Numbered from the stretch's first letter, positions 9,068 to 38,054 are shown. The stretch: DNA of 64,000 bases from Flavobacterium sp. UBA5153 (GCF_002413745.1 NZ_DHXP01000073.1), one strand, 5' to 3'. The notes: generated by a model not told the origin, from the letters alone. Made by a program: numbers and translations.

Positions 9068-10903
9068 TTAATCAATTATTTTATCTTGATGAATTTGTAA
9101 TAAGTTATCAGTTATCGTTGTGAAGCCAGCTAAAATTTCACTTAATTCAGATACATTTTCATACTCATACATTGAATCATCATAATATCTTTCATAATAA
9201 TCTTCATCCATTTGTTCAGAAGGGTCAAATGCACTTAAATACTTATCTTGATATTGATATATGAATGGTTTTTTCCTTAATCCTTTTCGGCACACAACAA
9301 CTTTAAGTGTTCCTCCAATTTCTTGACCATTGATTTGCAATTTAATATCCAACCTAATAAACTGAAAGTTGATAGCTGTAATTTTAACATTCTTTATAAT
9401 TTGTTTAAATATAGATTGTAGTTTGTTTCTATCATTTTTGGCTTGTTTTAAAATGCTATCGTCAAGTTTAATTTTTGATAGATTCTTTAAAGATTTTTTA
9501 TTTGATTCAAGTTGTTTTGTTTGTGTTGAAAGTTGAACTGATAGGTTATTTGATATTGATATTAATTCAGCTTTTTTAATATTGTGTCGTGTTTTTGATG
9601 CAACTTTAACATCTTCAGTATCATTTTCGTTTTCATCAAGGTAAGCATTAACCAACTTGTCGATTTTAATTTCATTTTGTTTTATCTCTTTTTCAATAAA
9701 TGGAATTGATGTTTCAAGTAAACTTATTTTATTAGTAATATCTATTTTGATACTGTCAGTATCATTTAAGTATTTTAATACAGTTGGAGATTTACAAAGT
9801 ATGTTATATATTGAACTATCAACAAGGTCAATATTCACACCTAAATTCGCACAAGGTTTAACATCATTTACAACCCTTGACGAACAAACATACACTTGTT
9901 TTAAATCTGATACTTGATGCGTATAATTACGACCACATACACCGCATGTAGTTAAATATTGAAGTAGTATAACATTCTTTGTATGTATATTTCTACCATT
10001 CCCTTTTTTACCTAGACGTATATCAGTACATTCATCAAATATTTTTTTTGATATAATTGCTATATTTGGTGCATCGAATGGTTCAGAATTATCAATTAAT
10101 TTCCCATTAGCATCTTTTCTTTTTTTCTTTTTGAATATTCGTTTACCATAGTATATAGTATTTGTTAAAATGACATATATTTGATTTGCTGTCCATTTAA
10201 TATTATTAGCTTGTTTGCCTTTATATTCTTTGTCTTCGAATGCTTTATTGGTTCTTGTTGGTATATTATCTTTGTTTAATTCCTTTGCAATATGCCCCAT
10301 TCCAAAACCTTGTTTATATTGTTCAAAAATCAATTGAATTATCTTTGATTCTTCTTTATCAATTGCCAGTTTTTTATGTTCATCTTTTAAATATCCATAA
10401 GGTTGCATTAGTCCACCAGTTACACCACCATCAAAAATTTTTTGTTTCAATCCAGATGAAGCCCTAGATTTAAAAACATCAATTTCAATTTGAGCAAAAT
10501 CCATCAACAACCCAAGTACAGCGAATTTTGTTTTATCAATACTACCGTCAGGATTTAAGAAATGTGAACCACCATTTGTTGATGTTACACACACATCAAT
10601 ACCTTGTTCAAGTAGGTTAGTTACTATTATTCTTGCCTCAATAGGTTTTCTTCCTACACGAGAAAGTTCAGTAACGTAAAGACATTTATAAAATTTGGGT
10701 TTAGATTCAACTTTATTTAAAAAACGTGTTAACTCGGGTCTCTCTTTTGAACCTTTGAAACCACTTATTTTTTCAGCATAAACATCAATATTTATTTCAT
10801 TTTCTTTATACTGACTATGTATATACTTTGTTATATCTGTTATTTGTCGTTCAAACATTTGATTTTTTGTTGAGACCCTTACATAAATTGCTAAATTTAC
10901 CAT
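9068..10903 (-). CDS. Large serine recombinase (integrase)
   Basis: N-terminus MVNLAIYVRVSTKNQMFERQ (start ATG at 10903). Recombinase domain, zinc ribbon (CGVCGRNYTH...YVCSS) and a long coiled-coil C-terminus. 611 aa. Confidence 0.85.
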   Translation of the reverse strand: MVNLAIYVRVSTKNQMFERQITDITKYIHSQYKENEINIDVYAEKISGFKGSKERPELTRFLNKVESKPKFYKCLYVTELSRVGRKPIEARIIVTNLLEQGIDVCVTSTNGGSHFLNPDGSIDKTKFAVLGLLMDFAQIEIDVFKSRASSGLKQKIFDGGVTGGLMQPYGYLKDEHKKLAIDKEESKIIQLIFEQYKQGFGMGHIAKELNKDNIPTRTNKAFEDKEYKGKQANNIKWTANQIYVILTNTIYYGKRIFKKKKRKDANGKLIDNSEPFDAPNIAIISKKIFDECTDIRLGKKGNGRNIHTKNVILLQYLTTCGVCGRNYTHQVSDLKQVYVCSSRVVNDVKPCANLGVNIDLVDSSIYNILCKSPTVLKYLNDTDSIKIDITNKISLLETSIPFIEKEIKQNEIKIDKLVNAYLDENENDTEDVKVASKTRHNIKKAELISISNNLSVQLSTQTKQLESNKKSLKNLSKIKLDDSILKQAKNDRNKLQSIFKQIIKNVKITAINFQFIRLDIKLQINGQEIGGTLKVVVCRKGLRKKPFIYQYQDKYLSAFDPSEQMDEDYYERYYDDSMYEYENVSELSEILAGFTTITDNLLQIHQDKIID

Positions 10904-13380: not shown

Positions 13381-15486
13381 ATGCGCTATCTTTTTCTCTT
13401 AATTTCCACCATCACATTTGCACAACAAACTAAATTTGTTGATTTCAAATCGGTTTCCGGTCAAGTGACAATTAATCCCAAAGAAAAATCAGTTTCGGGA
13501 GCGGTTCGTTATTGGTTTGATGTTTTGAAACCCATTGACACCATCAAAATTGACGCCCAGAATATGACGTTTTCCGAGGTGGAAATGAACGAACAGAAAA
13601 TTAAATTCAGCACCAATGGGAAACAACTTTTGTTGATTTTTCCGTTCGAAAAAGGGAAAAACACAATCCGCTTTAAATATAAGGCAATCCCAAAACAGGC
13701 ATTGTATTTTGTTGGACATTTCGACTGTGCTCAGTGTGACAAATCGAATGTCATCCCGAGCGCAGTCGAGGGACAGATTTGGACGCAAGGTCAGGGAAAA
13801 TATACCAGCAATTGGTTTCCGAGTTTTGACGACGTGAATGAAAAAATGATTTTTAATTTGGAAGTCGTTTTCGACTCCAAATACCAAGTGATTTCGAATG
13901 GAAAATTAATCAATGGCAATATCAATATCAATGGCAATTTTAAAAATTGGAAATACAGTATGCAAAAACCAATGAGTTCCTATTTATTGATGCTTGCCAT
14001 CGGGAAATTCGACAAAAAAATCGAGTTTTCAAAGTCCAGAATTCCTTTGGAAATGTATTATGAACCCAATACTTTGGCCAAATTTGAACCCACTTATCGC
14101 TATTCAAAACAAATTTTCGACTTTCTGGAAAAGGAAATAGGAGTAAAGTATCCTTGGAAAATATACAAACAAATTCCGGTTCGGGATTTCCTTTATGGCG
14201 GAATGGAAAACACCTCGGCAACGCTTTTTTCCAGTCAATATGTCGTGGATTCAACCGGTTTTGAAGATAGAAATTACACGAATGTGAATGCACACGAACT
14301 GGCACATCAATGGTTTGGAGATTTGGTCACAGCCGAAAGCGGAAAAAACCATTGGCTTCAGGAAGGTTTCGCCACGTATTATGCCTTGCTGGCCGAAAAA
14401 GAAATTTATGGCGACGATTATTTTTATTCCAAATTATACAACTATGCGCAAGAACTCAAACAGGCTTCAAAAACCGATACGATTCCAATTTTGAATCCGA
14501 AAGCGAGTTCGTTGACTTTCTACCAAAAAGGAGCTTGGGCGTTGTATGTTTTGCGAGAAGGAATTGGCGAAAAAGCCTTTAGAAAATCAGTTCAAAACTA
14601 TCTCAAGAAATATTCCTTCCAGAACGTAACTACGCAGGATTTCCTTGCCGAAATCAAGAAAATTTCGGATTATGATTTGGATAATTTTTGTAAAGTATGG
14701 CTCGAAACACCTGGTTTTAATAGTCAAATTGCCAATGATTTACTTTCTAAAAATAAATCTATCCAAACGCTTTTTGAAATTGAAAAATCAAGAAATAAAC
14801 CTTTGTCCGAAAAGAAAGTGTTTTTTGCCAAAATCCTTCAATCGGATGTGTATTCGTCTGTAAAAGAAGCTATCATATATCAATTGAAAAACGAAAATTT
14901 TGAAGACTCGAAACCGTTGTTGATTCTTGCTTTGGCAACCAAAAATAGGCAAGTTCGCCAAGCGGTTGTTGGTATTTTGACTAAAATCCAGGAAGAATTT
15001 AGAACTCAATATGAAAGTCTGCTTGATGATAAATCGTATCAAACACAGGAAATCTCCTTGTATAATTTGTGGAATAATTTTCCCGAACATCGTATAGAAT
15101 ATTTGGAAAAATCAAAGAATTGGATTGGTTTCAATGATTATAATTTGAGGACTTTGTGGTTGTCGCTGGCATTGTCGACTGCTGAATATTCGGTAAACAA
15201 AGAAGGGTTAATCGATGAATTGATTAATTATTCTTCACCCAATTTTGAAGCCACGACACGACAAAATGCTTTAGAAAAACTGATTGCTTTCCATTTGATA
15301 AACGAAACAGTTTTGAAAAATTTGGTCAACGCAACGACTTCTCCTATGTGGCAATTTTCTAAATTTGGCAGAGAAAATATTCGGGCGTTGCTAAAAAATA
15401 AAGAAATGAGAATTTCATTTGAGAGAATTTTACATAATTTAGACGAAAAAGAGCAATTTCAATTGAACCGATTGTTGAAGGAGTAA
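13381..15486 (+). CDS. M1 family metallopeptidase (aminopeptidase N-like), secreted
   Basis: HELAHQWFGD (HExxH), WLQEGFATY and GGMEN motifs. N-terminal signal peptide. Confidence 0.9.
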   Translation: MRYLFLLISTITFAQQTKFVDFKSVSGQVTINPKEKSVSGAVRYWFDVLKPIDTIKIDAQNMTFSEVEMNEQKIKFSTNGKQLLLIFPFEKGKNTIRFKYKAIPKQALYFVGHFDCAQCDKSNVIPSAVEGQIWTQGQGKYTSNWFPSFDDVNEKMIFNLEVVFDSKYQVISNGKLINGNININGNFKNWKYSMQKPMSSYLLMLAIGKFDKKIEFSKSRIPLEMYYEPNTLAKFEPTYRYSKQIFDFLEKEIGVKYPWKIYKQIPVRDFLYGGMENTSATLFSSQYVVDSTGFEDRNYTNVNAHELAHQWFGDLVTAESGKNHWLQEGFATYYALLAEKEIYGDDYFYSKLYNYAQELKQASKTDTIPILNPKASSLTFYQKGAWALYVLREGIGEKAFRKSVQNYLKKYSFQNVTTQDFLAEIKKISDYDLDNFCKVWLETPGFNSQIANDLLSKNKSIQTLFEIEKSRNKPLSEKKVFFAKILQSDVYSSVKEAIIYQLKNENFEDSKPLLILALATKNRQVRQAVVGILTKIQEEFRTQYESLLDDKSYQTQEISLYNLWNNFPEHRIEYLEKSKNWIGFNDYNLRTLWLSLALSTAEYSVNKEGLIDELINYSSPNFEATTRQNALEKLIAFHLINETVLKNLVNATTSPMWQFSKFGRENIRALLKNKEMRISFERILHNLDEKEQFQLNRLLKE

Positions 15487-27328: not shown

Positions 27329-29494
27329 TTACTTTTTAACCGCTTCAACTAATTCCAAAACATCCAAACTCACTTTTGAAGTGAATATTCCGTAATTTAC
27401 GGTTGCCTTATTTTTCTCAATGTTATCAATACTTCCCACGGCTTTTCCGTCAATCATTCGTACTCGATCTCCCACTTTCAAAATAGCTTTTGGTTTTTCG
27501 ATAACGGGTTTGAGTTTCTTTTCCTTTTTGGCAACCCTAATTTCTTCAACCTTAACCTCAATCTCTTTAATAACTTCCTTTTTCTTTTCGACAATTGCCT
27601 TAATTTCTTTGGGAGTTGCTTTTTTGCGTTTTGAATTTTCGATTTCGATAATCTTCAAAAACTCGCCAATAAGATCTTTCTTGTTTTTATTATTGAAATA
27701 TTTCTCGGCAATATCTTCAATTTTTTGTCCAATGTAAATCGTTTTCTGGTTACTGTCATACAATTCTTGGTAGCTTTCCAGTTTTTGCTTGATTTTCACG
27801 TTGATAGTTTCCATTTTTTTGCCTTCCTCACGCGCTTTTGTTTCTTCTTCTTTCAGCGTTTGCGATGTTTTTTCCATCTTCGAACGCTCTTTTTGCAAGG
27901 TGGCGATGGTTTTGTCAAAACGCACTTTTCCCACTTCAATTTTCTTTTTCGCCCGATTGATTAAACTAAACGGAATTCCATTTTTCAGTGCCACTTCAAA
28001 TGTGAAAGAACTTCCTGCTTGGCCTAAAACCAATTTATACATTGGTTCCAAGGTTTTTTCGTCAAACAACATATTAGCATTTATGGCAAAAGGCAATTCG
28101 TTGGCAAGAATTTTCAGGTTCGAATAATGGGTCGTAATTATGCCGAAAGCTTCCCGATGATAGAACTCTTCCAAGAAAATTTCTGCCAAAGCACCACCCA
28201 ATTCCGGATCAGAACCGGTACCAAATTCATCAATCAGGAACATCGTTTTCTTGTTGCATTTCTTCAAGAAGTAGTTCATATTCTTGAGTCGGTAACTGTA
28301 GGTACTCAGATGGTTTTCAATAGATTGGTTATCTCCAATATCCGTTAATATTCTATCAAACAAAAAGGTTTCGCTGCGTTCGTGAACGGGAATTAACATT
28401 CCGGATTGCAGCATTAATTGGAGCAATCCCACAGTTTTTAGTGAGATTGTTTTTCCTCCTGCATTGGGTCCTGAAATCACGATGATTCTTTTTTCCTGAT
28501 TTAACTCAATAGTTTGAGGATGCGTAACCTCGTTCTTCTGTTTGTTATTCAAATACAAAATGGGGTGGAAGGCATCCCGAAAATACAACCTTCTATTTTC
28601 AGTAATTGCCGGTAAAATCCCGTTGATTCTGTTGGCGTATTTGGCTTTGGCTGCAATCACGTCAATATCGCTCAAGAATTCCTGATATTGAATAAGCAAC
28701 GGTAAAAAAGGACGAATCTGGTTGGATAATTGTTTCAGAATTCGGGTGATTTCTTCTTTTTCCTCATATTCTAAATTACTCAATTCACGCGAATATTTCA
28801 AGGTAGTTTCGGGTTCAATATAAGCGATACTTCCCGTTTTGGAACTGCCCAAAATAGAACCTTTGACTTTGCGACGATACATAGCCGAAACCGCCAAAAC
28901 TCTACGATTTTGAACAAAACTTTCTTTAATGTCGTCTAAATAGCCAAGTGCATTATATTGCGTTAATGCCACTCCAAAACTCTGGTTGACTTTGCCACGA
29001 ACGAGATTCATTTCTCGACGAATATTTGATAATTCGGGAGAAGCATTGTCTTTTATTTCCCCATATTTATCGACCACAACATCTACAAGGCTGCTTATTT
29101 CCTTGGTTAATTGCACTTCGGAAGCTTTTACATTTAGATTGGGATAATAATCATCGAATTTTTTGAAATAATTCAGCAGGAAATTCGTGGTTTCTGATAT
29201 GGTGGCAATTTTTCTAAAACTTCCCACTTCAAGAAAACTGTCTTCTATAGCCAAGAACTTGATTTCGTAGGTAATGGCATCAAATCCGTGATTGGGAATA
29301 GCATTATTATTTTGGAAAGAGGAAACATATTCGGTGGTTTGCATCAAAGCCTTCATCAAGGTTTCTTTCTCGTTGAAAGGCGTGATTTCCAAGGCTTTTT
29401 GCTTACCAATATCGGTATTGCAAATTGCCGAAATGGTTTCGAGAACGGTTGGAAATTGTAAATCTTGAAGTGTTTTTTCTGTAATGGAGATCAT
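27329..29494 (-). CDS. mutS2: MutS2 family protein (no obvious Smr domain; KOW-like C-terminus)
   Basis: GPNAGGKT Walker A, DEFGTGSDP, a long Lys/Glu-rich linker, and C-terminal VGDRVRM...GKAVG. Confidence 0.85.
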   Translation of the reverse strand: MISITEKTLQDLQFPTVLETISAICNTDIGKQKALEITPFNEKETLMKALMQTTEYVSSFQNNNAIPNHGFDAITYEIKFLAIEDSFLEVGSFRKIATISETTNFLLNYFKKFDDYYPNLNVKASEVQLTKEISSLVDVVVDKYGEIKDNASPELSNIRREMNLVRGKVNQSFGVALTQYNALGYLDDIKESFVQNRRVLAVSAMYRRKVKGSILGSSKTGSIAYIEPETTLKYSRELSNLEYEEKEEITRILKQLSNQIRPFLPLLIQYQEFLSDIDVIAAKAKYANRINGILPAITENRRLYFRDAFHPILYLNNKQKNEVTHPQTIELNQEKRIIVISGPNAGGKTISLKTVGLLQLMLQSGMLIPVHERSETFLFDRILTDIGDNQSIENHLSTYSYRLKNMNYFLKKCNKKTMFLIDEFGTGSDPELGGALAEIFLEEFYHREAFGIITTHYSNLKILANELPFAINANMLFDEKTLEPMYKLVLGQAGSSFTFEVALKNGIPFSLINRAKKKIEVGKVRFDKTIATLQKERSKMEKTSQTLKEEETKAREEGKKMETINVKIKQKLESYQELYDSNQKTIYIGQKIEDIAEKYFNNKNKKDLIGEFLKIIEIENSKRKKATPKEIKAIVEKKKEVIKEIEVKVEEIRVAKKEKKLKPVIEKPKAILKVGDRVRMIDGKAVGSIDNIEKNKATVNYGIFTSKVSLDVLELVEAVKK

Positions 29495-29576
29495 TTAAAT
29501 AGGTAGAAATTTTATACAAAGTTACAAACTTGTTAAGTTGTATTAATCTAAAACAATTAATTTTTATATTTGTTAA

Positions 29577-29867
29577 ATGAAAAAGGATGAAATAATCGAT
29601 ACTTTACAAACGGAAAAGCAATTCCTTAAAGATAATTACGGTGTTATTACCATTGCTTTGTTTGGTTCTTATGCAAAAGGAATGGAAAATCCGGATAGCG
29701 ATGTTGATTTCATTGTCGAATTCAAAGAGCCATCTTATAGCTTGTTGATGGGTTTGTATTCCTATTTAGAAAATAAATTAAATTCCAAAATTGAAATTGT
29801 TAGAAAAGGACCTCATTTATCGGAGCGATTTCTTAATAACATCAAAAACGACTTGATTTATGTATGA
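29577..29867 (+). CDS. mntA: MNT-type nucleotidyltransferase antitoxin
   Basis: LFGSYAKG...DSDVDF minimal nucleotidyltransferase motifs. Overlaps the next gene by 8 bp. Confidence 0.8.
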   Translation: MKKDEIIDTLQTEKQFLKDNYGVITIALFGSYAKGMENPDSDVDFIVEFKEPSYSLLMGLYSYLENKLNSKIEIVRKGPHLSERFLNNIKNDLIYV

Positions 29868-30222
29868 TGCTGTTTATAAATATTCGCTGGAAACTATTTT
29901 AGATCATATCAACATTTGTAATAAAAGATTTTCTGAAATTCATAATCCTATTGATTTTACTTCAACCGATTATGGGAAAACGCTACTCGACTCCATTGTT
30001 ACTAGGCTTCAAGCCATCGGTGAAAACTTAAAAAACACTTCAAGAAAAAACAATTTATTGCAGACCAATTATCCGGAAATTGAGTGGAACAAAATCATTC
30101 GATTTCGGGATTTTATTTCTCATCATTATGAAATGTTGGATTATGAGATTGTTTTTGAAATATGTGAGGATTATTTACCAAAATTAGAATTGGTCATAAA
30201 AGAAGAATTAGCTAAATTTTAA
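29860..30222 (+). CDS. hepT: HEPN (DUF86) toxin
   Basis: RFRDFISHHY contains the Rx4-6H HEPN motif. 120 aa. Confidence 0.8.
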   Translation: MYDAVYKYSLETILDHINICNKRFSEIHNPIDFTSTDYGKTLLDSIVTRLQAIGENLKNTSRKNNLLQTNYPEIEWNKIIRFRDFISHHYEMLDYEIVFEICEDYLPKLELVIKEELAKF

Positions 30223-30227
30223 TAAGG

Positions 30228-30252
30228 ATGCAACCCAAACTCAATCCTTCTT
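30228..30252 (+). repeat. 25-bp perfect copy of the ung start (ATGCAACCCAAACTCAATCCTTCTT)
   Basis: Identical to 34783-34807. Homology ends after CCTTCTT. Confidence 0.9.
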
Positions 30253-30506
30253 TTAGCCGATATGCGCTGTTTTTTACCCAATACGCAACGTATTTTCAGT
30301 CTTTCAGCACCCTAAAATTAAAAGTCCTTTCGCTGATTCGTAATAATTTATCTATATATTTGATAAAAAATAATGTATGTAGGATTATCATACAAAGCCG
30401 CCCAAATAAGGGAGGATTGGAATGATTTTATCAGATTAATCTACGAGTTACCTGATATTTTCGAGCAACAGAAACAGAAACAAAAACTAAAACAAAAATT
30501 AAAATT

Positions 30507-31046
30507 ATGAAAAACAAATTATTACTTACAATTGCAATTCTTTTATGCGCAATTTCTTATTCTCAAGATTTTCCTAAACTAAAATTAACACCAAATGGTG
30601 TTGAACCAATAATTGTAAATACAGATAGTTTAAAAGCAACAGATTTATATGAAAAAGCATTGAATTGGGTACAAGAAACTTATAAAAACCCTGAAAAAGT
30701 TCTTAAAGCAAAAATAGAAAACGAAAAAATTAGAATAGATGCTTTTGCTGAAAATGCTTGGTGGTATAAATCACTTGGAATGAAACAGAATTATAATATG
30801 GCATATTCTGTAGAAATTTCATTCAAAGATGGTAAATACAAGTTTGAGTATATAATTGGACAATTTTTTATTGAAGGCGGACAAAAAGTATTGTATGATT
30901 ACAAAACATTTTATAAAAAAACAGGAGAAGTAAGGAGTGCTTATACTGACGCTGTTCCGAGTTTAGAAGAAACAATGAATAATTTATCATTGAATTTTTA
31001 TAATTATTTGACTGGAAAAACAACAAAAAAAGATGATAAATGGTAA
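30507..31046 (+). CDS. Hypothetical lipoprotein (possibly DUF4468-like)
   Basis: Signal peptide MKNKLLLTIAILLCAISYSQ. 179 aa. The family name is from memory only. Confidence 0.6.
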   Translation: MKNKLLLTIAILLCAISYSQDFPKLKLTPNGVEPIIVNTDSLKATDLYEKALNWVQETYKNPEKVLKAKIENEKIRIDAFAENAWWYKSLGMKQNYNMAYSVEISFKDGKYKFEYIIGQFFIEGGQKVLYDYKTFYKKTGEVRSAYTDAVPSLEETMNNLSLNFYNYLTGKTTKKDDKW

Positions 31047-31055
31047 AATAGTCAA

Positions 31056-31697
31056 ATGAAAAATTTAGAAATTTATAAAGAATTTTATTTTAGAGAAATC
31101 GACCGTAAAAATGAATTAAACAACATCATAAATATACCGATTTTAATTATTACAGGGATTATTTCAGTTCAGTTTTATTTTTACAGCCAACAAATTGAAA
31201 ATTCTTTAAAAATATATTTGGAAGTTTTATCTATAATTTGTGCGTTAAGTATTCTTTATTCAATATTTTATCTTTTGAAATCATTTGGTAATTTTTTCAA
31301 AAATCATAGTTATAAAGAATTGAATGAAATGAACTCAATTTATAAGTATGAAAGGGAATTAATAAAGGAACAAACAAAAATTGCGGACGCTGAAAGTTTC
31401 TTTTTAGAATACTTAAACGAACAGTTTTCTGATTGTGCAAGTCATAATTTTTTAATCAACAAAACAAGAACTGAAGACATAGCAAAATCAAAAAAAGGAA
31501 TTTTTATAAGTATAATTTGCACAATTTTATTTTCAATAATATTTTTAATTTCAATTATTACTATGGCAAAAAAAACTGAAAATACCAAACCAATAGTTAA
31601 ACCAGTTACAACTATTCAACAACCACAAAGTGTTTTAATAAAAAATAGTAAACAGACAAAAGAAACACCTAAAACAAACATAAAGAGAAGTAATTAA
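31056..31697 (+). CDS. Hypothetical membrane protein (3 predicted TM helices)
   Basis: 213 aa, starting 9 bp after the previous stop. Hydrophobic helices at about residues 25-45, 55-75 and 150-170. Confidence 0.55.
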   Translation: MKNLEIYKEFYFREIDRKNELNNIINIPILIITGIISVQFYFYSQQIENSLKIYLEVLSIICALSILYSIFYLLKSFGNFFKNHSYKELNEMNSIYKYERELIKEQTKIADAESFFLEYLNEQFSDCASHNFLINKTRTEDIAKSKKGIFISIICTILFSIIFLISIITMAKKTENTKPIVKPVTTIQQPQSVLIKNSKQTKETPKTNIKRSN

Positions 31698-31754
31698 AAA
31701 CATCAGGTAATCGAGTAGACGGCTCCGCCAGAAACTGACGGAGTGCGCCTCTCA

Positions 31755-31790
31755 CACCACCGAACGTACGGGTCACGTATTCGGCGGTTC
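31755..31790 (-). ncRNA. Group II intron domain V
   Basis: About 34-nt hairpin ACCGCCGAA/UUCGGUGGU with upper stem UACG/CGUA. The CGC triad is typical of IIC introns. Confidence 0.75.
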
Positions 31791-33068
31791 GCAAAGTGAT
31801 GGGTTGAGTTCGATGTAAACATCGGTTAATGATTGATAGCCTCGCTGTTTCAAGCGTTTCAAAGTAATGGTGGTATTCAAAATTGGACTCTGTGCAATTG
31901 CCCAACCGCCTTTCCTCGTCCTGCTCCAAGCATAGGCGTGGTCTTGGTCAACGCCTAATCGAATCAGGTTTTTCCTTTTTCGTTCGGGTTTCTTCCAGTC
32001 GTGCCAAATGCAATAGCGCAGGCGATTTCGTAGCCAGCCGTCTAAATCACGTAATTTGCCCATAATGCTCGTTCCCCGAAAATAGTTTAACCATCCTCGT
32101 TGCACTTCTTTTATCTTGGCAATCCGTTCTTCTAGCTTGACTGGTGCGGTTTTTCGGCTGATGCTTTTGAGCCGTTCTTTGAGTTTCTTCCACGCCTTTT
32201 CTGCCACTACCAACTGGTATTGGTTTTTGCTCCCTTTTTGATACGTTGGCACAAACCCAAATCCCAACAAAGTGAAGTTTACAGGACGTCTAATCCCGCT
32301 TTTCTCGGTGTTGATGGTGAGTTGGAGCTTCGTTTTCAAGAATTTTGCAATTACCTGTGCTGTGGCTTTCGCCTGATTTTGGCTTTTGCAGTAGATGCTA
32401 AAATCATCGGCATAGCGAACGAATTTCAGTTTCCGCCTTGTCATTTCTTTGTCCAACTCATTGAGTAGAATATTAGACAATAACGGACTCAATGGGCTTC
32501 CTTGCGGAACGCCTTTTGTTCGTTTTTGTAATTTTCCGTTGATTCGTATCGGCACTCGCAACCAGTTTCGTATCAAGCGCATTGTGGTTTGGCATTTCAC
32601 TTTTCGATAGACTAAATTCAGCAATAAACAATGATCTACTTCGTCAAAGAAGTTCTTGAGGTCGATGTCCACGATGTGGTTCAGTCCCTGATGGATGTAT
32701 TCCCTCGATTGCCCAACGGCTTGTCGGGCGTTTTTGTTGGGTCTAAATCCAAAACTATTGCTACTGAATTCGGGTTCAAATAGTGGTGCAATTACTTGTG
32801 ATACGGCTTGTTGCAACACTCGGTCGGTGGTGGTGGGAACGCCCAAAAGTCGGGTTTTGCCGTTGCCTTTGGGAATCTCTACGCCTAAAATGGCTTGTGG
32901 CAAGTAGTTGCCTTGTCTGATGGCTTCGAGCAATTGTGCTTTCTTTTGGGGGAATAACATCTTGAGTTGAGTGGTTTTTATACCATCGACTCCTGCGCTT
33001 CCTTTGTTGGAAATCACTTGCTCTACTGCTTTTTGCAGATTGTAAGGATGTACTACTCTCTCAATCAT
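31773..33068 (-). CDS. Group II intron reverse transcriptase/maturase (no endonuclease domain)
   Basis: RT motifs including VRYADDF (YADD). Maturase X region. 431 aa. Confidence 0.9.
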   Translation of the reverse strand: MIERVVHPYNLQKAVEQVISNKGSAGVDGIKTTQLKMLFPQKKAQLLEAIRQGNYLPQAILGVEIPKGNGKTRLLGVPTTTDRVLQQAVSQVIAPLFEPEFSSNSFGFRPNKNARQAVGQSREYIHQGLNHIVDIDLKNFFDEVDHCLLLNLVYRKVKCQTTMRLIRNWLRVPIRINGKLQKRTKGVPQGSPLSPLLSNILLNELDKEMTRRKLKFVRYADDFSIYCKSQNQAKATAQVIAKFLKTKLQLTINTEKSGIRRPVNFTLLGFGFVPTYQKGSKNQYQLVVAEKAWKKLKERLKSISRKTAPVKLEERIAKIKEVQRGWLNYFRGTSIMGKLRDLDGWLRNRLRYCIWHDWKKPERKRKNLIRLGVDQDHAYAWSRTRKGGWAIAQSPILNTTITLKRLKQRGYQSLTDVYIELNPSLCEPPNT

Positions 33069-33613
33069 TTTGTTGTTTTAATCGGTTAACCTGTTCTTGT
33101 TTTTCAGAGCTATAACTTGCGCCATTCCGTTGAAAATTAAGAACCATTTTGCGTTCGGTCCTTCCTTGTTTGTGAGTCCTATGCGGTATCTATTCGCAAC
33201 TCGTTGCCCCAAGTACTATGACTTCTGCTGACTTCTTTGCCTAACCAACTCGTGGTTGCAAAGACCTCCCCTGGTAAGAACTTTTTCCTTCATCCAATCA
33301 CTGGAGCATCTACATCTAAAAGGTTTGGTAATCTTCGGACGTTACGTTGCTGTGGACGCTTATCCCCTTTTAAATGCCTCGTATGCACTTTCTGTTCGTC
33401 AGTACCGGATTTTGTCGTTTCGCTTCCTTCAGTTCTGGCTTCACAGCCAACAACCTTGCGACGTACTAGTGGTTCGGGTTTTCAATCCGCCCACAAGGGA
33501 CTTGCACCCTCTGGAAAAATAACACGCTGTAAGATTTGTTTTCTAATCCAAAATTTGTAATTTCGGATTTTTATCAAAGCCTACAGCGTGTGTCCTGCTC
33601 ATGCAGGGCACAC

Positions 33614-33734
33614 ACAGCCGTTTTGAGCTAGTGTGTGATTTAGTGGAATTAGCGTTTCGCATTATGTTTTCTGCAAAGCCGAAAATTGAAAGGTTACGAA
33701 ATCCCCACCATCTCAAAGCAGCGGAACGTTAGGC
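33614..33734 (+). repeat. attC-like junction element 1 (right part; the left 10-14 nt are at 31701-31714, split by the intron)
   Basis: Read across the intron: AGGTAAT (R''-like), 6-nt spacer, GCCGTTTTGAG (33617-33627) pairing with CTCAAAGCAGC (33712-33722), 5-nt spacer, GTTAGGC (33728-33734, matching GTTRRRY). About 131 nt without the intron. Confidence 0.45.
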
Positions 33735-33777
33735 ACAATGTTGCCAAAAAAAAACAATTAACTTAAAATAAAAATAA

Positions 33778-34275
33778 ATGGGATTTTTCACATCAAAACC
33801 GAAAAAAAAAGCACTTCAAATTTTAGAAATTGAAATAACAGATAGTCTTTTATCAAAATTAGTTGAAACGCAAAAACTGAATGGTTTTACAGACTATTCA
33901 ATTGAAATTTCAGAAAAATTTAAACTATTTGATATTGCAATTTTCAGAAGTTTTGAAAACACAAAAGAACTTACAAACGAAACTTCATTCAATTTAATTC
34001 TCGAAAACAAAAATCAATCAATAACTATAAATAAAGTTAAAGAATTAGTGAATTCTTTTTCAGCTGAATATGGAAATGACAGAAATGGAAAATCAAAATG
34101 GACGAATGAAGATGATAAAGCAATCTCAACTTATTGGGAAGGGCGTGAATGGATTTTAGATAGTAAAAGAAAATCTCAAAAGGTTTTTGAAAAAGATTGC
34201 TGTCAAATTAATTTTCATTTTAACCTAGATGACGGAGTAGATTTTTCAATTTTAGGAGCAAATAGTCAAATTTAA
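33778..34275 (+). CDS. Hypothetical cytoplasmic protein (cassette-like ORF)
   Basis: 165-aa ORF flanked by the inverted 15-mers GTTAGGCACAATGTT (33728-33742) and AACACTGTGCCTAAC (34295-34309). Confidence 0.55.
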   Translation: MGFFTSKPKKKALQILEIEITDSLLSKLVETQKLNGFTDYSIEISEKFKLFDIAIFRSFENTKELTNETSFNLILENKNQSITINKVKELVNSFSAEYGNDRNGKSKWTNEDDKAISTYWEGREWILDSKRKSQKVFEKDCCQINFHFNLDDGVDFSILGANSQI

Positions 34276-34302
34276 AAAAATTAACATCGAAAGAAACACT
34301 GT

Positions 34303-34360
34303 GCCTAACAGCTAGAGTTTCGTTGCGTGCGCAGTACGAACAATGAAACTCGTGTTGAAC
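34303..34360 (+). repeat. attC-like junction element 2 (58 bp)
   Basis: GCCTAAC (matches RYYYAAC), spacer AGCTA, stem GAGTTTCGTTG / CAATGAAACTC, spacer GT, GTTGAAC (matches GTTRRRY). The right spacer is shorter than canonical. Confidence 0.4.
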
Positions 34361-34495
34361 GGAACCAAAGTACCTGCCGTTAACACTATGGAGTTATCAT
34401 AAAGTTTTTAGAGAGAATGCAAATAGTCCAATAGCCGTCAGGATTGTCCGCTTCGCTTAATGCTAAAGTGTAAACATTAACCATTGCATTTTGCG

Positions 34496-34651
34496 AAAAC
34501 TTCACGAACTTTACTGCAAATTAAATTGTATGCAACTCAAACTCAATCCTTCTTGGCAAACTATTTTAGATGACGAAATCCAGAAACCTTATTTCCAGGA
34601 TTTGATGAAGGCTGTCGATGAAGAATACAAAAATCATACTTGTTTTCCCCC
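34496..34651 (+). pseudogene. Truncated, diverged copy of the ung upstream region plus the first ~41 codons
   Basis: Aligns to 34748-34904 with roughly a dozen mismatches by eye (MQLKLNPSWQTILDDEIQKPYFQDLMKAVDEEYKNHTCFPP versus the intact gene). Homology stops after CFPP. Confidence 0.85.
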
Positions 34652-34750
34652 TGCTGGCGCAAGCATTAGGTAACACAGACGCTAGTGCGAGTTTCCAAAC
34701 TCGTACCCTAAATAGTGGGCACAAGCGTGACGCTTGCGACAGCGGAGGAA
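34652..34750 (+). repeat. Junction element 3 (related to elements 1 and 2)
   Basis: CATTAGGTAACACAGACGCTAGTGCGAGTTT parallels CATCAGGTAATCGA|ACAGCC..GCTAGTGTGTGATTT of element 1. Its end, ACAGCGGAG, parallels GCAGCGGAAC of element 1. It has hairpins CGAGTTT/AAACTCG and CAAGCG/CGCTTG. Confidence 0.35.
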
Positions 34751-34782
34751 AACTTTGCGAACTTTACGGCAAATTAAATTAT

Positions 34783-35463
34783 ATGCAACCCAAACTCAAT
34801 CCTTCTTGGCAAACTATTTTATCAGATGAAATCCAGAAACCTTATTTTAAGGACTTGATGAAAGCTGTCGATGAAGAATACAAGAATCACACTTGTTTTC
34901 CTCCAAAGGAATTGATTTTCGCCGCTTTCGATCATTGTTCGTTTGACCATTTGAAAGTGGTCATTATTGGACAAGATCCGTACCACGGGATTCATGAAGC
35001 GAATGGTTTGTGTTTTTCGGTAAACGATGCTGTCAAGATTCCACCTTCGTTGCGCAATATTTTTAGGGAATTGAATGATGATTTGGGAACTGTTTTCCTG
35101 CCTACTTCCGGCAACTTGGAACATTGGGCAAAACAAGGCGTTTTACTTTTGAATGCTTCTCTTTCGGTTCGAATGGACAATCCAAACAGTCATAAACATT
35201 TGAAATGGGCAACTTTTACCGATGCTGTTATCCAGAAAATTTCGGATGAAAAAGAAAATATAGTGTTTTTGCTTTGGGGAAGTTTTGCCAAGAAAAAAGG
35301 TTCCAAAATTGACAGAAATAAACATCTGGTTTTAGAATGCGGACATCCTTCGCCTATGAGCGCCAATCAAGGAAAATGGTTTGGGAACAAACATTTTAGC
35401 CAGACGAATGAGTATTTGAAATCGAAAGGAAAAACCGGAATCGATTGGTCAATTATAAATTAA
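34783..35463 (+). CDS. ung: Uracil-DNA glycosylase
   Basis: GQDPYHG and HPSPMSA motifs. Start at ATG 34783 (MQPKLNPSWQTIL). The upstream extension in the ORF track reads through junction DNA. Confidence 0.9.
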   Translation: MQPKLNPSWQTILSDEIQKPYFKDLMKAVDEEYKNHTCFPPKELIFAAFDHCSFDHLKVVIIGQDPYHGIHEANGLCFSVNDAVKIPPSLRNIFRELNDDLGTVFLPTSGNLEHWAKQGVLLLNASLSVRMDNPNSHKHLKWATFTDAVIQKISDEKENIVFLLWGSFAKKKGSKIDRNKHLVLECGHPSPMSANQGKWFGNKHFSQTNEYLKSKGKTGIDWSIIN

Positions 35464-35509
35464 AAAAATCCCTTAAACATTTAAATTATGGATAAAGGAT
35501 TAATAAAAA

Positions 35510-37027
35510 TTATGAAGCGATTTCTACCGATTTTTTTTGTTTCATGCTTCCCGTTTTTGATAATCGGGTGTAAAAAGTAAAGGCTTCTTCCAAAAGATGA
35601 GGAGTTTGCCCGCCACGTAAACAGGCACGATCATAATAATCGATGAGTTCCTCTTTATATTCCGGATGGGCACAATTTTCGATGATTACTTTTACGCGTT
35701 CTCTTGGCGCAAGGCCTCTCAAATCGGCCAAACCTTGTTCCGTCACCAAAATATCGACATCATGTTCGGTATGGTCCACATGGGGAACCATTGGCACAAC
35801 ATGCGATATGGAATTGAATTCCTTGGAAGCGGACTGCGTAACAAAAATGCTCAAATAACTGTTTCTGGCAAAATCCCCAGAACCCCCGATGCCGTTCATC
35901 ATTTTGGTGCCTGAAATATGCGTTGAATTTACATTGCCATAAATGTCAAATTCAATTGCGGTATTAATTGATATAACTCCTAATCTCCGGATTACTTCCG
36001 CTGAATTGCTGATATTTTGCGGACGAAGAACCATCTTGTCTTTATATTGATCGAAATTGTCTAAAACGTGTTTGTAACAGGCTTCTGAAACTGTAATTGA
36101 CGATGCCGAAGCAAAATCCATTTTTCCGGAATCAAATAATTCAAAGGTACTGTCTTGTAATACTTCCGAATACATGACCAAATTTTCAAAATTTCCTCTG
36201 GAAAATCCTGACATCACCGCATTAGCCACTTTTCCGATGCCAACCTGTAATGGCATTAATGATTTTGTCAATCTGCTAACTTCAATTTCATTTTCAAAAA
36301 ACGCTAACAAATGATTTGCGATTGCTGTAGTTTTTGCATCTGGCTCGCTTACCAAAGCAGCACTGTCGGGAAGTTCTGTAAACACAATTCCGGCAACTTT
36401 GTCAGGATCAATAGTGATATAATCGACTCCGATTCTGTCTTCGGAAGATTTAATGTTGATGACATCCCGATTTGGATATTTTTCATGAATAAAAATATCA
36501 TGTATACCTTTGAAATTTAATGGTATAGAAGTATTTATTTCAATGATAATATTATCTGCTAAATGTGCAAAAGTAGCCGAGTTTCCCACAGAAGTTGTTG
36601 GGATAATATTCCCATTTTCATCAATATAGGTGGCTTCAAGAATGGCAAAATCGAGTTTTGGAAGATGCTTGTTTTCTAATAATTCGGCAGTTTCACTGAG
36701 GTGTTGGTCTATAAAAAGCACGTCACCTTCGTTAATTTTTTGTCTGAGCGAACTATCAGCCTGAAAAGGCATTCTTCGGTATAAGGCATTGTTTTTCGCC
36801 AAATCGGCATCGGTATTGTGTCCTAAAGAAGCGCCGGTAATCAGCGTAATGGCGATATTTTCGAATTCTGCTTTTTTCGCAAAAGCAGGAAGTACGGCTT
36901 TGCTGTCCCCTGCTTTTGTAAATCCGCTTGTGCCAACTACCATTTTATCTTTTAAAAAATTGGCGGCTTGTTGCGCAGAAATTACTTTGTCTTTGTAACT
37001 TTGAAATCGAATTCGCTCTAAGTTCAT
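35510..37027 (-). CDS. Acetyl-CoA hydrolase/transferase family protein (succinate/acetate CoA-transferase-like)
   Basis: 505 aa. Typical N-terminus (VVGTSGFTKAGDSKAV) and GIGGSGDF motif. Confidence 0.85.
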   Translation of the reverse strand: MNLERIRFQSYKDKVISAQQAANFLKDKMVVGTSGFTKAGDSKAVLPAFAKKAEFENIAITLITGASLGHNTDADLAKNNALYRRMPFQADSSLRQKINEGDVLFIDQHLSETAELLENKHLPKLDFAILEATYIDENGNIIPTTSVGNSATFAHLADNIIIEINTSIPLNFKGIHDIFIHEKYPNRDVINIKSSEDRIGVDYITIDPDKVAGIVFTELPDSAALVSEPDAKTTAIANHLLAFFENEIEVSRLTKSLMPLQVGIGKVANAVMSGFSRGNFENLVMYSEVLQDSTFELFDSGKMDFASASSITVSEACYKHVLDNFDQYKDKMVLRPQNISNSAEVIRRLGVISINTAIEFDIYGNVNSTHISGTKMMNGIGGSGDFARNSYLSIFVTQSASKEFNSISHVVPMVPHVDHTEHDVDILVTEQGLADLRGLAPRERVKVIIENCAHPEYKEELIDYYDRACLRGGQTPHLLEEAFTFYTRLSKTGSMKQKKSVEIAS

Positions 37028-37198
37028 ATTTTTGGTTTTTTAGTAATTAATTTGACGATAATGTTTTTTTTCATTAATAAATTAAAAGAAAATTAAAATT
37101 TAATTTATTTATATTACAATAATAGTAAAATAAACAATTGACAAATTATCTTAAAAAGACAAATATGTATTCATTTCGGACACTATAAAATTAAATAA

Positions 37199-38014
37199 AT
37201 GACAAAAGAAAAATATTATATAAAGGAAGTTGATGCGGATAAAAAAAGTATTTATTGTCATCATGACTTAATGGGAGAACTATTGATTCCGACCCATAAA
37301 CATGACAAAGCGCAAATGTTGTATACTGAAGGCGGAATAGTTTATGTTATTACCCAAACGAATACTTATTTCTTGCCTGCCCGTCATTTTATGTGGATTC
37401 CAAAAGGAGTGGAACATAGTATCCATACCAATTCTGAAAACGTAATAATGAGAAATTTATATTTTCCGGTAAAAACAAACGAGCATCTTTTTTATGAAAG
37501 TGAAGGAATTTATCCGATTAACGATTTGTTATTGCAAATGATGCTTTTTACCAATAGATGGGATGGAAATTTGAAGAAAGGAACCAGAAATTACGATATC
37601 ACCAAAGCGATTAAAGCGATTATGCCTAAAATTTGTTTGAATAATTTACCGTTATCATTGCCTTTTTCAAAGGATATTCGGCTGACAAAAATAGTGGATT
37701 ACTTAGATGGGAATTTAGCTGAACCCATTTTATTTTCTAAGATAGCTATTCAATTTGGATTTAGTGAACGCTCTTTATATCGGTTGTTTCAAAAAGATTT
37801 GGGAATGTCATTTATTCAATACCTTACTATTCGAAGAATTTTAAAAGCAATAGAATTGTTGTTGGAAAAACACCTTACCGTTAACGAAGTGGCACTAGCT
37901 GTAGGTTATAATAGCGTGCCGACTTTCAGCAACACTTTTTACAAAATTCTTAGACAGCGACCATCAGATTATTTAAATGGAGAGCGAATCCTAAAAAAAA
38001 AGTTAGCCATTTAA
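37199..38014 (+). CDS. AraC family transcriptional regulator (cupin N-domain)
   Basis: C-terminal double HTH (FSERSLYRLFQK...VGYNSVPTFSNTFYK). Confidence 0.85.
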   Translation: MTKEKYYIKEVDADKKSIYCHHDLMGELLIPTHKHDKAQMLYTEGGIVYVITQTNTYFLPARHFMWIPKGVEHSIHTNSENVIMRNLYFPVKTNEHLFYESEGIYPINDLLLQMMLFTNRWDGNLKKGTRNYDITKAIKAIMPKICLNNLPLSLPFSKDIRLTKIVDYLDGNLAEPILFSKIAIQFGFSERSLYRLFQKDLGMSFIQYLTIRRILKAIELLLEKHLTVNEVALAVGYNSVPTFSNTFYKILRQRPSDYLNGERILKKKLAI

Positions 38015-38054
38015 TTGGTTAACTTTTTTAATAATTTCCAAAAGTCAATACATT

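Follow-up and report, generated by a model that had tools for sequence, protein, structure and literature searches.

How does the beginning of one gene come to be written three times around a segment of accessory DNA? The ung locus of Flavobacterium sp. UBA5153 (GCF_002413745.1, NZ_DHXP01000073.1) raises this question, and we examined it in a stretch of 64,000 nucleotides, hereafter the window, to which all coordinates without a further label refer. Between mutS2 and ung, the window carries accessory genes bracketed by direct repeats of the ung start, a structure that could wrongly pass for an integrative element or an integron. The analysis below suggests that these direct repeats are most likely the scars of at least two recombination events and not att sites.

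The 25-mer ATGCAACCCAAACTCAATCCTTCTT matches the window at 30228-30252 and 34783-34807 without a mismatch and at 34530-34554 with one mismatch; there is no further copy in the 64 kb and no match in 100 dinucleotide shuffles. Exact matching and shuffling thereby confirm the first-pass annotation of the sequence, which had reported three copies of the ung 5' end, two of them identical at 25 of 25 positions. Because the 25-mer is also identical in other species (L003, L005, L006 and L010; L numbers designate the loci and contigs used for comparison), the perfect identity of copies 1 and 3 is uninformative on age. Copy 1 begins 5 nt past the stop codon of the HepT open reading frame (ORF; 29860-30222). 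Copy 2 was recovered, when the window was searched for repeats, as a direct repeat of 157 nt (34495-34651 versus 34748-34904) that is 90 % identical without indels, or 15 mismatches over 154 nt by BLAST, and holds 34 nt of upstream leader plus about 40 codons of ung. An earlier description of this copy, as about 34 bp of upstream sequence plus about 41 codons at 34496-34651, stands as to size and identity but not as to its end after the codons for CFPP. The C-run at 34647-34651, which forms the last bases of 'CFPP', is mostly the terminal C-run of an adjacent palindrome, so the part of copy 2 derived from ung ends at about +117 to +119 and not at +123. We refer to the partial copies as stub 1 (30228-30252, plus strand), the first 25 nt of an ung allele broken after CCTTCTT, and stub 2 (34495-34648, plus strand), a 34-nt promoter/leader followed by ung from +1 to about +117/119 with its ATG at 34530. 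The functional gene (34783-35463, plus strand; Pfam UDG) is preceded by a 34-nt leader of its own (34749-34782).

This structure misleads gene callers. They begin ung at 34618 (281 aa), at an ATG that is out of frame within stub 2 and is read in frame through the palindrome and the leader, while homology places the true start at 34783 (226 aa), where it aligns with the start in 77 relatives; the annotated ung is 55 codons too long. At least 8 contigs that were assembled independently (JGI, ENA and NCBI metagenome-assembled genomes, MAGs) show the identical arrangement, which is therefore not an assembly artefact.

We compared the locus with 80 Flavobacterium loci containing ung, obtained by a scan with one genome per species; mutS2 and ung are both visible in 76 of them. 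The product of mutS2 (27329-29494, minus strand; Pfam MutS_V, 4.7e-29), the conserved left flank, is 87-96 % identical in amino acids, and the gene is syntenic, in 76 of the 80 related loci. The order holA-ABC-DCC1-mutS2-ung-(variable)-PNP-SUI1-2OG is conserved among the loci, and this synteny from holA to 2OG rules out a large chromosomal rearrangement as the origin of copy 1. Only 82-222 bp separate mutS2 from ung in 60 of the 76 loci (configuration a); relatives thus provide the empty sites that had been proposed as a comparison. Configuration b, found in 12 loci and in one contig without mutS2 (13/80), has the genes MNT and HepT between mutS2 and ung, with the HepT stop about 5-10 nt ahead of the ung ATG (about 40 nt in L050). 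The remaining distances are 312 bp in L046, 321-322 bp in L004 and L017 and 1269 bp in L014; the distance in the window is 5288 bp. Judged by gene content across these genomes, the mutS2-ung interval is a gene-exchange hotspot in Flavobacterium.

The window itself has MNT (29577-29867, plus strand; Pfam NTP_transf_2, with matches to the PADLOC PDC-S09 models) and HepT (plus strand; Pfam HepT-like), a predicted toxin-antitoxin pair. In L008 the same HepT-TAATAAGG-ATG junction as in the window leads into an intact ung. Since the HepT stop lies just before the ung ATG in 12 loci and L008 has this junction, copy 1 can be identified as the native ung start of a mutS2-MNT-HepT-ung configuration, cut after +25. 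The first-pass annotation was right that direct repeats of the ung start flank the segment but had missed that the left one is the native start of configuration b.

Stub 2 points to another source. It is preceded by a sequence that travels with its allele, M2 (34393-34494, plus strand), which is 82.5 % identical over 103 nt to L011 9864-9966, directly before the leader of an intact ung there. By eye, its 34-nt leader matches the L009 leader where the two were aligned. Stub 2 and copy 3 differ at 12 coding positions, 8 of them third codon positions, without an indel or stop, and each of the variant states occurs in other species; their identity of 90 % falls within the range between species. 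The third-position bias, the lack of indels and stops and the polymorphic states are as expected for functional alleles of different lineages, suggesting that stub 2 is most likely a different ung allele and not a decayed local copy. It had been called an older scar, which is not established: the order of the two events is unreadable from the sequence. The intact gene may be composite as well. It is 95 % identical to L003 in the first 120 nt, but in the 3' half most windows reach only 79-85 %, which hints weakly at a mosaic ung.

Between stub 2 and the leader of the functional gene lies the palindrome mentioned above (34647-34748, 102 nt, both termini intact). The earlier reading had listed it as 'junction element 3' without recognising a mobile palindrome of the REPIN type whose terminus forms the joint. 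The element has the termini CCCC(C)TGCTGGCGCAAGC ... GCTTGCGACAGCGGAGG; its left end is the C-run at 34647-34651 and its right end, CAGCGGAGG at 34740-34748, abuts the ung leader at position -34. It folds with -23.9 kcal/mol (z -4.15), and none of 200 shuffles folds as well. A metagenome scan with the core GAGTTTYCAAACTCGTACCC returned four contigs (L089-L092). L091 has a full copy that is 94 % identical, with the near-perfect terminal inverted repeats CCCCTGCTGGCGCAAGC / GCTTGCGCCAGCAGGGG, and copies of the left half are present in L089, L090, L092 and L011. A gene for a REP-associated tyrosine transposase (RAYT; REP, repetitive extragenic palindrome) has a left unit before it and a right unit behind it in L090 and L092; L091 has left units beside a partial RAYT ORF at the contig end. 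The RAYT gene matches NCBIfam REP_Tyr_transpos NF047646 with 89.6 bits (cut-off 80) and Pfam Y1_Tnp; we joined the L092 protein across a frameshift. Ten profile matches with E values of 4e-21 to 2.5e-12, in L089-L092, L011 and the window, have different flanks; they are the profile's own input, and independent support comes from BLAST and from the pattern scan. With a left-half profile, a single copy is detected in the 64-kb window and one half-copy in L011, likewise upstream of ung.

The element at 34647-34748 is on this evidence a predicted complete REPIN-like palindrome of a RAYT-associated family. Bacteroidetes RAYT subclasses with atypical flanking structures have been described (PMC6006769). 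The likeness to REP/REPIN elements and their RAYT (TnpA-REP, HUH-Y1), in particular to the Bacteroidetes-rich subclasses 2.4/2.6 (PMC6006769), lies in an imperfect palindrome of about 100 nt with a strong fold, in dispersed relatives that flank a RAYT gene and in the YIHNNP and WQ motifs of the protein. Unlike a usual REPIN, the element is bracketed by two diverged copies of a promoter and gene 5' end, is single in 64 kb and has no cognate RAYT in the window, where tblastn found none. Two spacers of the accessory segment, J_B (31698-31714 plus 33614-33777) and left J_C, were considered by eye as diverged REPs and dropped, as nhmmer gave no support.

A comparable arrangement recurs with an unrelated miniature inverted-repeat transposable element (MITE) of about 125 nt, which has a perfect 27-bp stem and folds with -43.2 kcal/mol (z -12.9) in L004/L017. 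These two loci have a stub (leader -87 to +8, ATGCAACC), the MITE, a second diverged leader and then an intact ung. Copies of the MITE are located at L004 9802-9927, L017 ~9805-9926, L012 622-748, L021 3781-3904 and L106 591-716. None of the 4 copies in the 80 loci is more than a few hundred bp away from ung, on its upstream or its downstream side, and the same holds for the L106 copy; the sample is centred on ung and does not separate targeting of ung from travelling with ung alleles.

L106 was found through a search of short ORFs for likeness to the ung N-terminus. Two other matches of that search, P0003 and P0004, were uninformative: one is an ung broken on a contig of 536 nt, the other results from a simple nonsense mutation. 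The order in L106 is HepT stop, 5 nt, an ung stub from +1 to +157, the MITE with intact ends, the intergenic region (IGR) from -87 to -1 and an intact ung, and the joint is the exact left end of the MITE. The right flank of the MITE is constant in L004, L017 and L106 and the left flanks differ. Stub and intact gene of L106 are 82.8 % identical, with 16 of 27 differences at third positions. Its MITE, leader and ung are closest to L004 (93.0, 92.4 and 91.2 %), while its HepT is closest to configuration b loci (89 %) and its backbone to L019/L008; these diverging affinities indicate that the backbone and the ung block are of different ancestry. At L102 3880-4170, and likewise in L103-L105, the leader (-87 to +8) is repeated three times in tandem upstream of an ung pseudogene; every repeat closes with an 8-nt MITE remnant GCTCCGCA, and the locus is rearranged beside holA. 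In L014 the full leader is retained as far as the ATG; next come a 1.2-kb insert, beginning with the hairpin motif HP1 (described below), and a different second leader. In L029 the joint lies in HepT codon 72 and is accompanied by a deletion.

From these comparisons, the layout of ung stub, hairpin element, promoter and intact ung appears to have arisen independently with the REPIN and with the MITE. The left joints fall in HepT codon 72 (L029), just before the ATG (L014) and at +8 (L004/L017), +25 and about +119 (window) and +157 (L106), scattered without a common motif, and the right sides are seamless in all cases. Where the joints can be read, they share 0-3 bases: CC at the one near +119, and C or CG at those of the MITE.

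What kind of event leaves such a record? Starting from the anatomy of the locus, the empty sites, the different alleles from which stub and intact gene derive, the REPIN nature of the palindrome and the recurrence of the layout, we think it probable that ung was replaced by DNA of other lineages, with a homologous anchor at ung and an illegitimate left joint, often at a hairpin-element terminus. The enzymology of this left joint, the incoming side and the route of DNA entry are the parts that we infer. The resident ung would have been replaced or displaced at least two times by DNA in which accessory sequence was followed by an ung gene with a promoter of its own. The right side of this DNA would have been integrated without a seam, through homology in ung or beyond it. 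Its left side would have entered by an illegitimate joint within the 5' portion of the resident gene, so that a piece of the earlier allele stayed behind as a stub, of 25 nt behind HepT in one event and of about 119 nt plus leader (34495-34648) in the other. The second joint would be the outer end of the REPIN directly upstream of the incoming ung promoter. A joint downstream of the point where the incoming homology starts would give a stub and one upstream of it a deletion, as in L029, with joints within mutS2 being counter-selected. Only short or diverged stubs would persist, as long identical repeats would be lost by recombination and expression of ung is required.

That the same hairpin-end joint arose elsewhere with a different MITE suggests that the termini of hairpin elements are preferred as illegitimate joints. 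A hairpin may shield a single-stranded DNA end from trimming, a nuclease may cut at the hairpin base, or a transposase may mediate a one-ended reaction. For L106 the opposite polarity, with a HepT-stub block entering an L004-like chromosome, explains the data equally. In each event the DNA on the right brought its own promoter and ung 5' end. Replacement anchored at ung agrees with two proposals of the first-pass annotation, namely that at least two events took place at the ung 5' end and that recombination was anchored on ung of another lineage; the latter fits the third-position differences, the mixed ancestry of L106 and the drop of identity to L003.

Several points weigh against replacement anchored at ung. 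A donor free of a stub, with the order IGR-REPIN-leader-ung or IGR-MITE-leader-ung, was not found among the 80 species representatives. Three joints lie at exact element termini, which random joining does not predict, and an added assumption is needed to account for them. The 93 nt that form the left end of the inserted DNA (30253-30345) matched nothing in the related loci, so that joint 1 lacks a donor sequence for comparison. The organism is not known to be naturally transformable. The signal of mosaicism in ung is noisy, and the codon-position bias of 8 in 12 discriminates weakly against a duplication in situ, with an estimated likelihood ratio of about 4.

Such a duplication is one of the alternatives that we considered. 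If the ung promoter and 5' region had been duplicated in tandem, with the element or accessory DNA then entering at the duplication joint and the copies slowly diverging, direct repeats would flank the inserts, and L102, where the leader is amplified to three tandem copies, lends this some plausibility. We nevertheless regard it as very unlikely. HepT and not a leader stands upstream of copy 1, which excludes a local duplication for the outer pair of repeats, and the right-hand leader of L106 (-87 to -1) is without a local source. Stub 2 carries M2 as L011 does, and it has the third-position bias and no signs of decay. The REPIN is far closer to the copies in L011 and L091 than to upstream sequence of the window, and an element would have had to land exactly on a duplication joint three times. 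A different way of accounting for those exact landings is that the transposase of the element (a RAYT/HUH-Y1 enzyme for the REPIN, some other enzyme for the MITE) acted aberrantly, cutting only the outer end of the element and joining it inside ung, so that the promoter and ung 5' region were dragged along; the target would be on a sister or incoming strand or be reached via a small circle made up of the element, the promoter and the ung 5' end, with the other side resolved by homology. The order stub, element, promoter and ung would result directly. The joints at about +119 in the window, +8 in L004 and +157 in L106 lie exactly at intact termini with the other flank constant, as this predicts, and the REPIN family is associated with a RAYT gene. 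HUH-type IS91/ISCR elements, which mobilise adjacent DNA by one-ended transposition, set a precedent. They too combine one constant element end with adjacent DNA of variable length; the elements seen here differ in being a REPIN and a MITE without a transposase gene, in belonging to another family with Y1 peel-and-paste chemistry and in being known from sequence alone. The 64-kb window has neither a RAYT nor another transposase and the left joints lack a conserved target motif, while enzymes of the IS200/IS605 type normally insert precisely and without duplications. The joints at +25 in the window and in L014 and L029 are not at a recognisable element end, and the entirely donor-type ung of L106 is equally explained by a simple allele replacement. 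An aberrant transposition of this kind is possible, though it does not seem likely.

The three gene-end repeats bracket two segments and the gene is restored each time, which would also be the outcome of site-specific integration with an integrase supplied in trans, a replacement 5' end and tandem accretion giving three att-like repeats. Site-specific integration with target restoration had been proposed in the first-pass annotation, and our results do not uphold it. A Pfam survey of all ORFs of the segment and an inspection of the called genes in 23778-44275 revealed no integrase or transposase other than the reverse transcriptase (RT) of a group II intron; the earlier statement that the segment encodes no other recombinase holds over this range. 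The repeats end at different positions (+25 and about +119, and +8 and +157 in relatives), excluding a common crossover site, and no motif is shared by the scattered joints. The second 'element' would be the 102-nt REPIN only, and in none of the 80 loci do the contents of the segment recur as a unit. We hold this explanation to be highly improbable. Even less credence can be given to an integron-like cassette array that has no integrase, with junction elements as attC sites and an intron of the attC-targeting class C. Small co-oriented ORFs of low GC content alternate with spacers that look structured, the repeats GTTAGGCACA (33729-33738) and TGTGCCTAAC (34301-34310), which bracket the accessory gene orf165, resemble R'/R'' core sites, and the intron lies in opposite orientation just past a stop codon, the position and orientation described for IIC-attC introns (PMC3001079). 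However, about 10 pairs of such 10-nt inverted repeats are expected in 4.6 kb by our estimate, which places GTTAGGCACA/TGTGCCTAAC at chance level, and the spacers J_A, J_B and J_C fold no better than shuffles. The sole strong palindrome belongs to a RAYT-associated REP family and is not an attC site, a profile of its left half finds no relatives among the other spacers, and there is no intI among the called genes. Complete integrons are almost unknown in Bacteroidetes (PMC9024848), and insertion of a cassette would not duplicate ung. We rejected the integron interpretation on the chance-level repeat, the spacers without a significant fold, the REPIN identity of the palindrome and the lack of intI.

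Replacement anchored at ung shares features with several known processes. In homology-facilitated illegitimate recombination, described in Acinetobacter and Streptococcus pneumoniae, a homologous anchor is combined with a joint at microhomology. The seamless, probably homologous side, the scattered joints opposite to it, with 0-3 shared bases where readable, and the trapped foreign DNA are alike; in the Flavobacterium loci, however, the joint is often downstream of the start of homology and leaves a duplicated stub instead of a deletion, and three joints are at the exact end of a hairpin element. A literature search for a duplication-forming version of this process gave nothing useful. Horizontal-transfer hotspots or 'minimal mobile elements' exchange their contents scar-free by double homologous recombination. 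The conserved flanks (mutS2/ung and ung/PNP), the alternative contents and the lack of self-mobility genes conform to this description, whereas the repeated truncation and replacement of one flanking gene does not. Genomic islands at the 3' ends of tRNA genes or at the 5' end of dusA restore their target gene, and gene-end direct repeats around an insert next to an intact gene are common to these islands and the ung locus, which differs in having no integrase, constant crossover point or conserved element.

The accessory segment itself has ORFs with a GC content of 22-28 %, compared to about 37-41 % in the flanking genes. Its first 93 nt (30253-30345) have no homolog in 1.5 Mb of related loci by blastn and tblastx and no significant fold. 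They are followed by HP1 (30351-30452, plus strand), a promoter-proximal hairpin motif upstream of the first accessory gene. A covariance model (R1) finds 13 copies of HP1 in 1.47 Mb: the one in the window, L011 9042-9142, L014 8850-8948, L007 18393-18493 (minus strand), L052 15130-15230, L057 15405-15510, L092 7303-7403 (minus strand) and one each in L044, L068, L062, L035, L036 and L060 (at about 15.4-15.7 kb). HP1 is about 100 nt long; a TAnnTTTG-like promoter box precedes it and unrelated accessory genes follow. Compensatory changes are found at 13 of 18 pairs, none of 500 shuffles reaches the observed values, and no Rfam family matches. From this pattern HP1 may be an undescribed RNA element of the 5' untranslated region in Flavobacterium. 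In three loci a GC-rich repeat that includes GGATGCCGCTTCCATCCCTCACGC is present about 100-200 nt upstream of HP1 (L011 8830-8950, L052 ~14950-15040 and L057 ~15300-15330).

Downstream of HP1 are a DUF4468 gene (30507-31046, plus strand; Pfam DUF4468, 9.5e-8) and a low-GC ORF for a predicted membrane protein (31056-31697, plus strand); these two genes (30507-31697) have no homologs among the 80 loci. The metagenome contig L084 differs from the window only by a 101-bp deletion in the membrane-protein gene (window 31061-31161), which is strain-level variation inside the accessory segment. The intron (~31715-33613, minus strand, with ends predicted to within a few nt) contains an RT/maturase ORF (31773-33068, minus strand; Pfam RVT_1 and GIIM). 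Rfam group-II-D1D4-3 matches it with 122 bits and D1D4-1 with 36 bits, its domains D5-D6 match Intron_gpII at 31710-31789 with 36.4 bits, which is under the gathering score of 40, and its 5' end is GTGTG on the minus strand at 33613. Ribozyme domains together with an RT/maturase ORF class it, by profile matches, as a group II intron. A hairpin upstream of its insertion site was looked for and not found. The accessory gene orf165 (33778-34275, plus strand) is without an assigned function and has no Pfam or PADLOC match; the spacer behind it (34276-34494) has M2 as its right part. The exact orf165 protein occurs at this locus only, in 23 contigs, and exact-protein look-ups of orf165 and the intron RT led to the same strain and the same locus only, without intermediate stages. 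Other assemblies of the same strain, L095, L100 and L101, stop at window ~33524-33760, between the intron 5' region and orf165, which may reflect strain heterogeneity or a repeat there.

Variation extends to the neighbourhood. The interval between ung and PNP (window 35464-38054) is a second variable spot: acoaH-AraC is present there in the window, L011 and L013 only, and elsewhere 0-4 kb of other DNA precede PNP/SUI1. To the left, the 82-bp spacer between mutS2 and MNT (29495-29576) is 95-98 % identical in L050, L055, L064 and L080, where MNT is only 75-85 % identical. The similarity of the spacer could be taken for a recent horizontal spread of MNT-HepT, which the lower identity of MNT itself, only 75-90 %, rules out; the spacer is merely a conserved sequence, probably a promoter or operator. 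In the MAG contig L011 (1-10000) ung adjoins a response-regulator/PglZ gene, tsaE and alanine dehydrogenase and not mutS2. ParDE, the REP half-copy and M2 are upstream of ung there, and a second gene of the UDG superfamily is located at 1952-2431.

Exchange at hotspots, illegitimate joining beside a homologous anchor and REPIN and MITE elements are all known already. Of the recurrent joint at the termini of hairpin elements, which leaves 5' gene stubs, we have met no description. It is conceivable that hairpin elements upstream of a promoter, REPINs as well as MITEs, themselves lead a one-ended transposition or strand transfer that carries the promoter and gene into homologous loci of other lineages. 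We consider this unlikely; if true, alleles would be replaced with the help of a transposase, with a 5' gene stub as the diagnostic trace, and REPINs and MITEs might quite generally promote gene flow at hotspots in this way. The ung locus offers a readable natural record of accessory DNA entering a chromosomal hotspot without an integrase. Within one genus, this single gene records at least four independent events, and the position of three joints on the ends of hairpin repeats suggests that REPINs and MITEs mark or create preferred points of illegitimate recombination.

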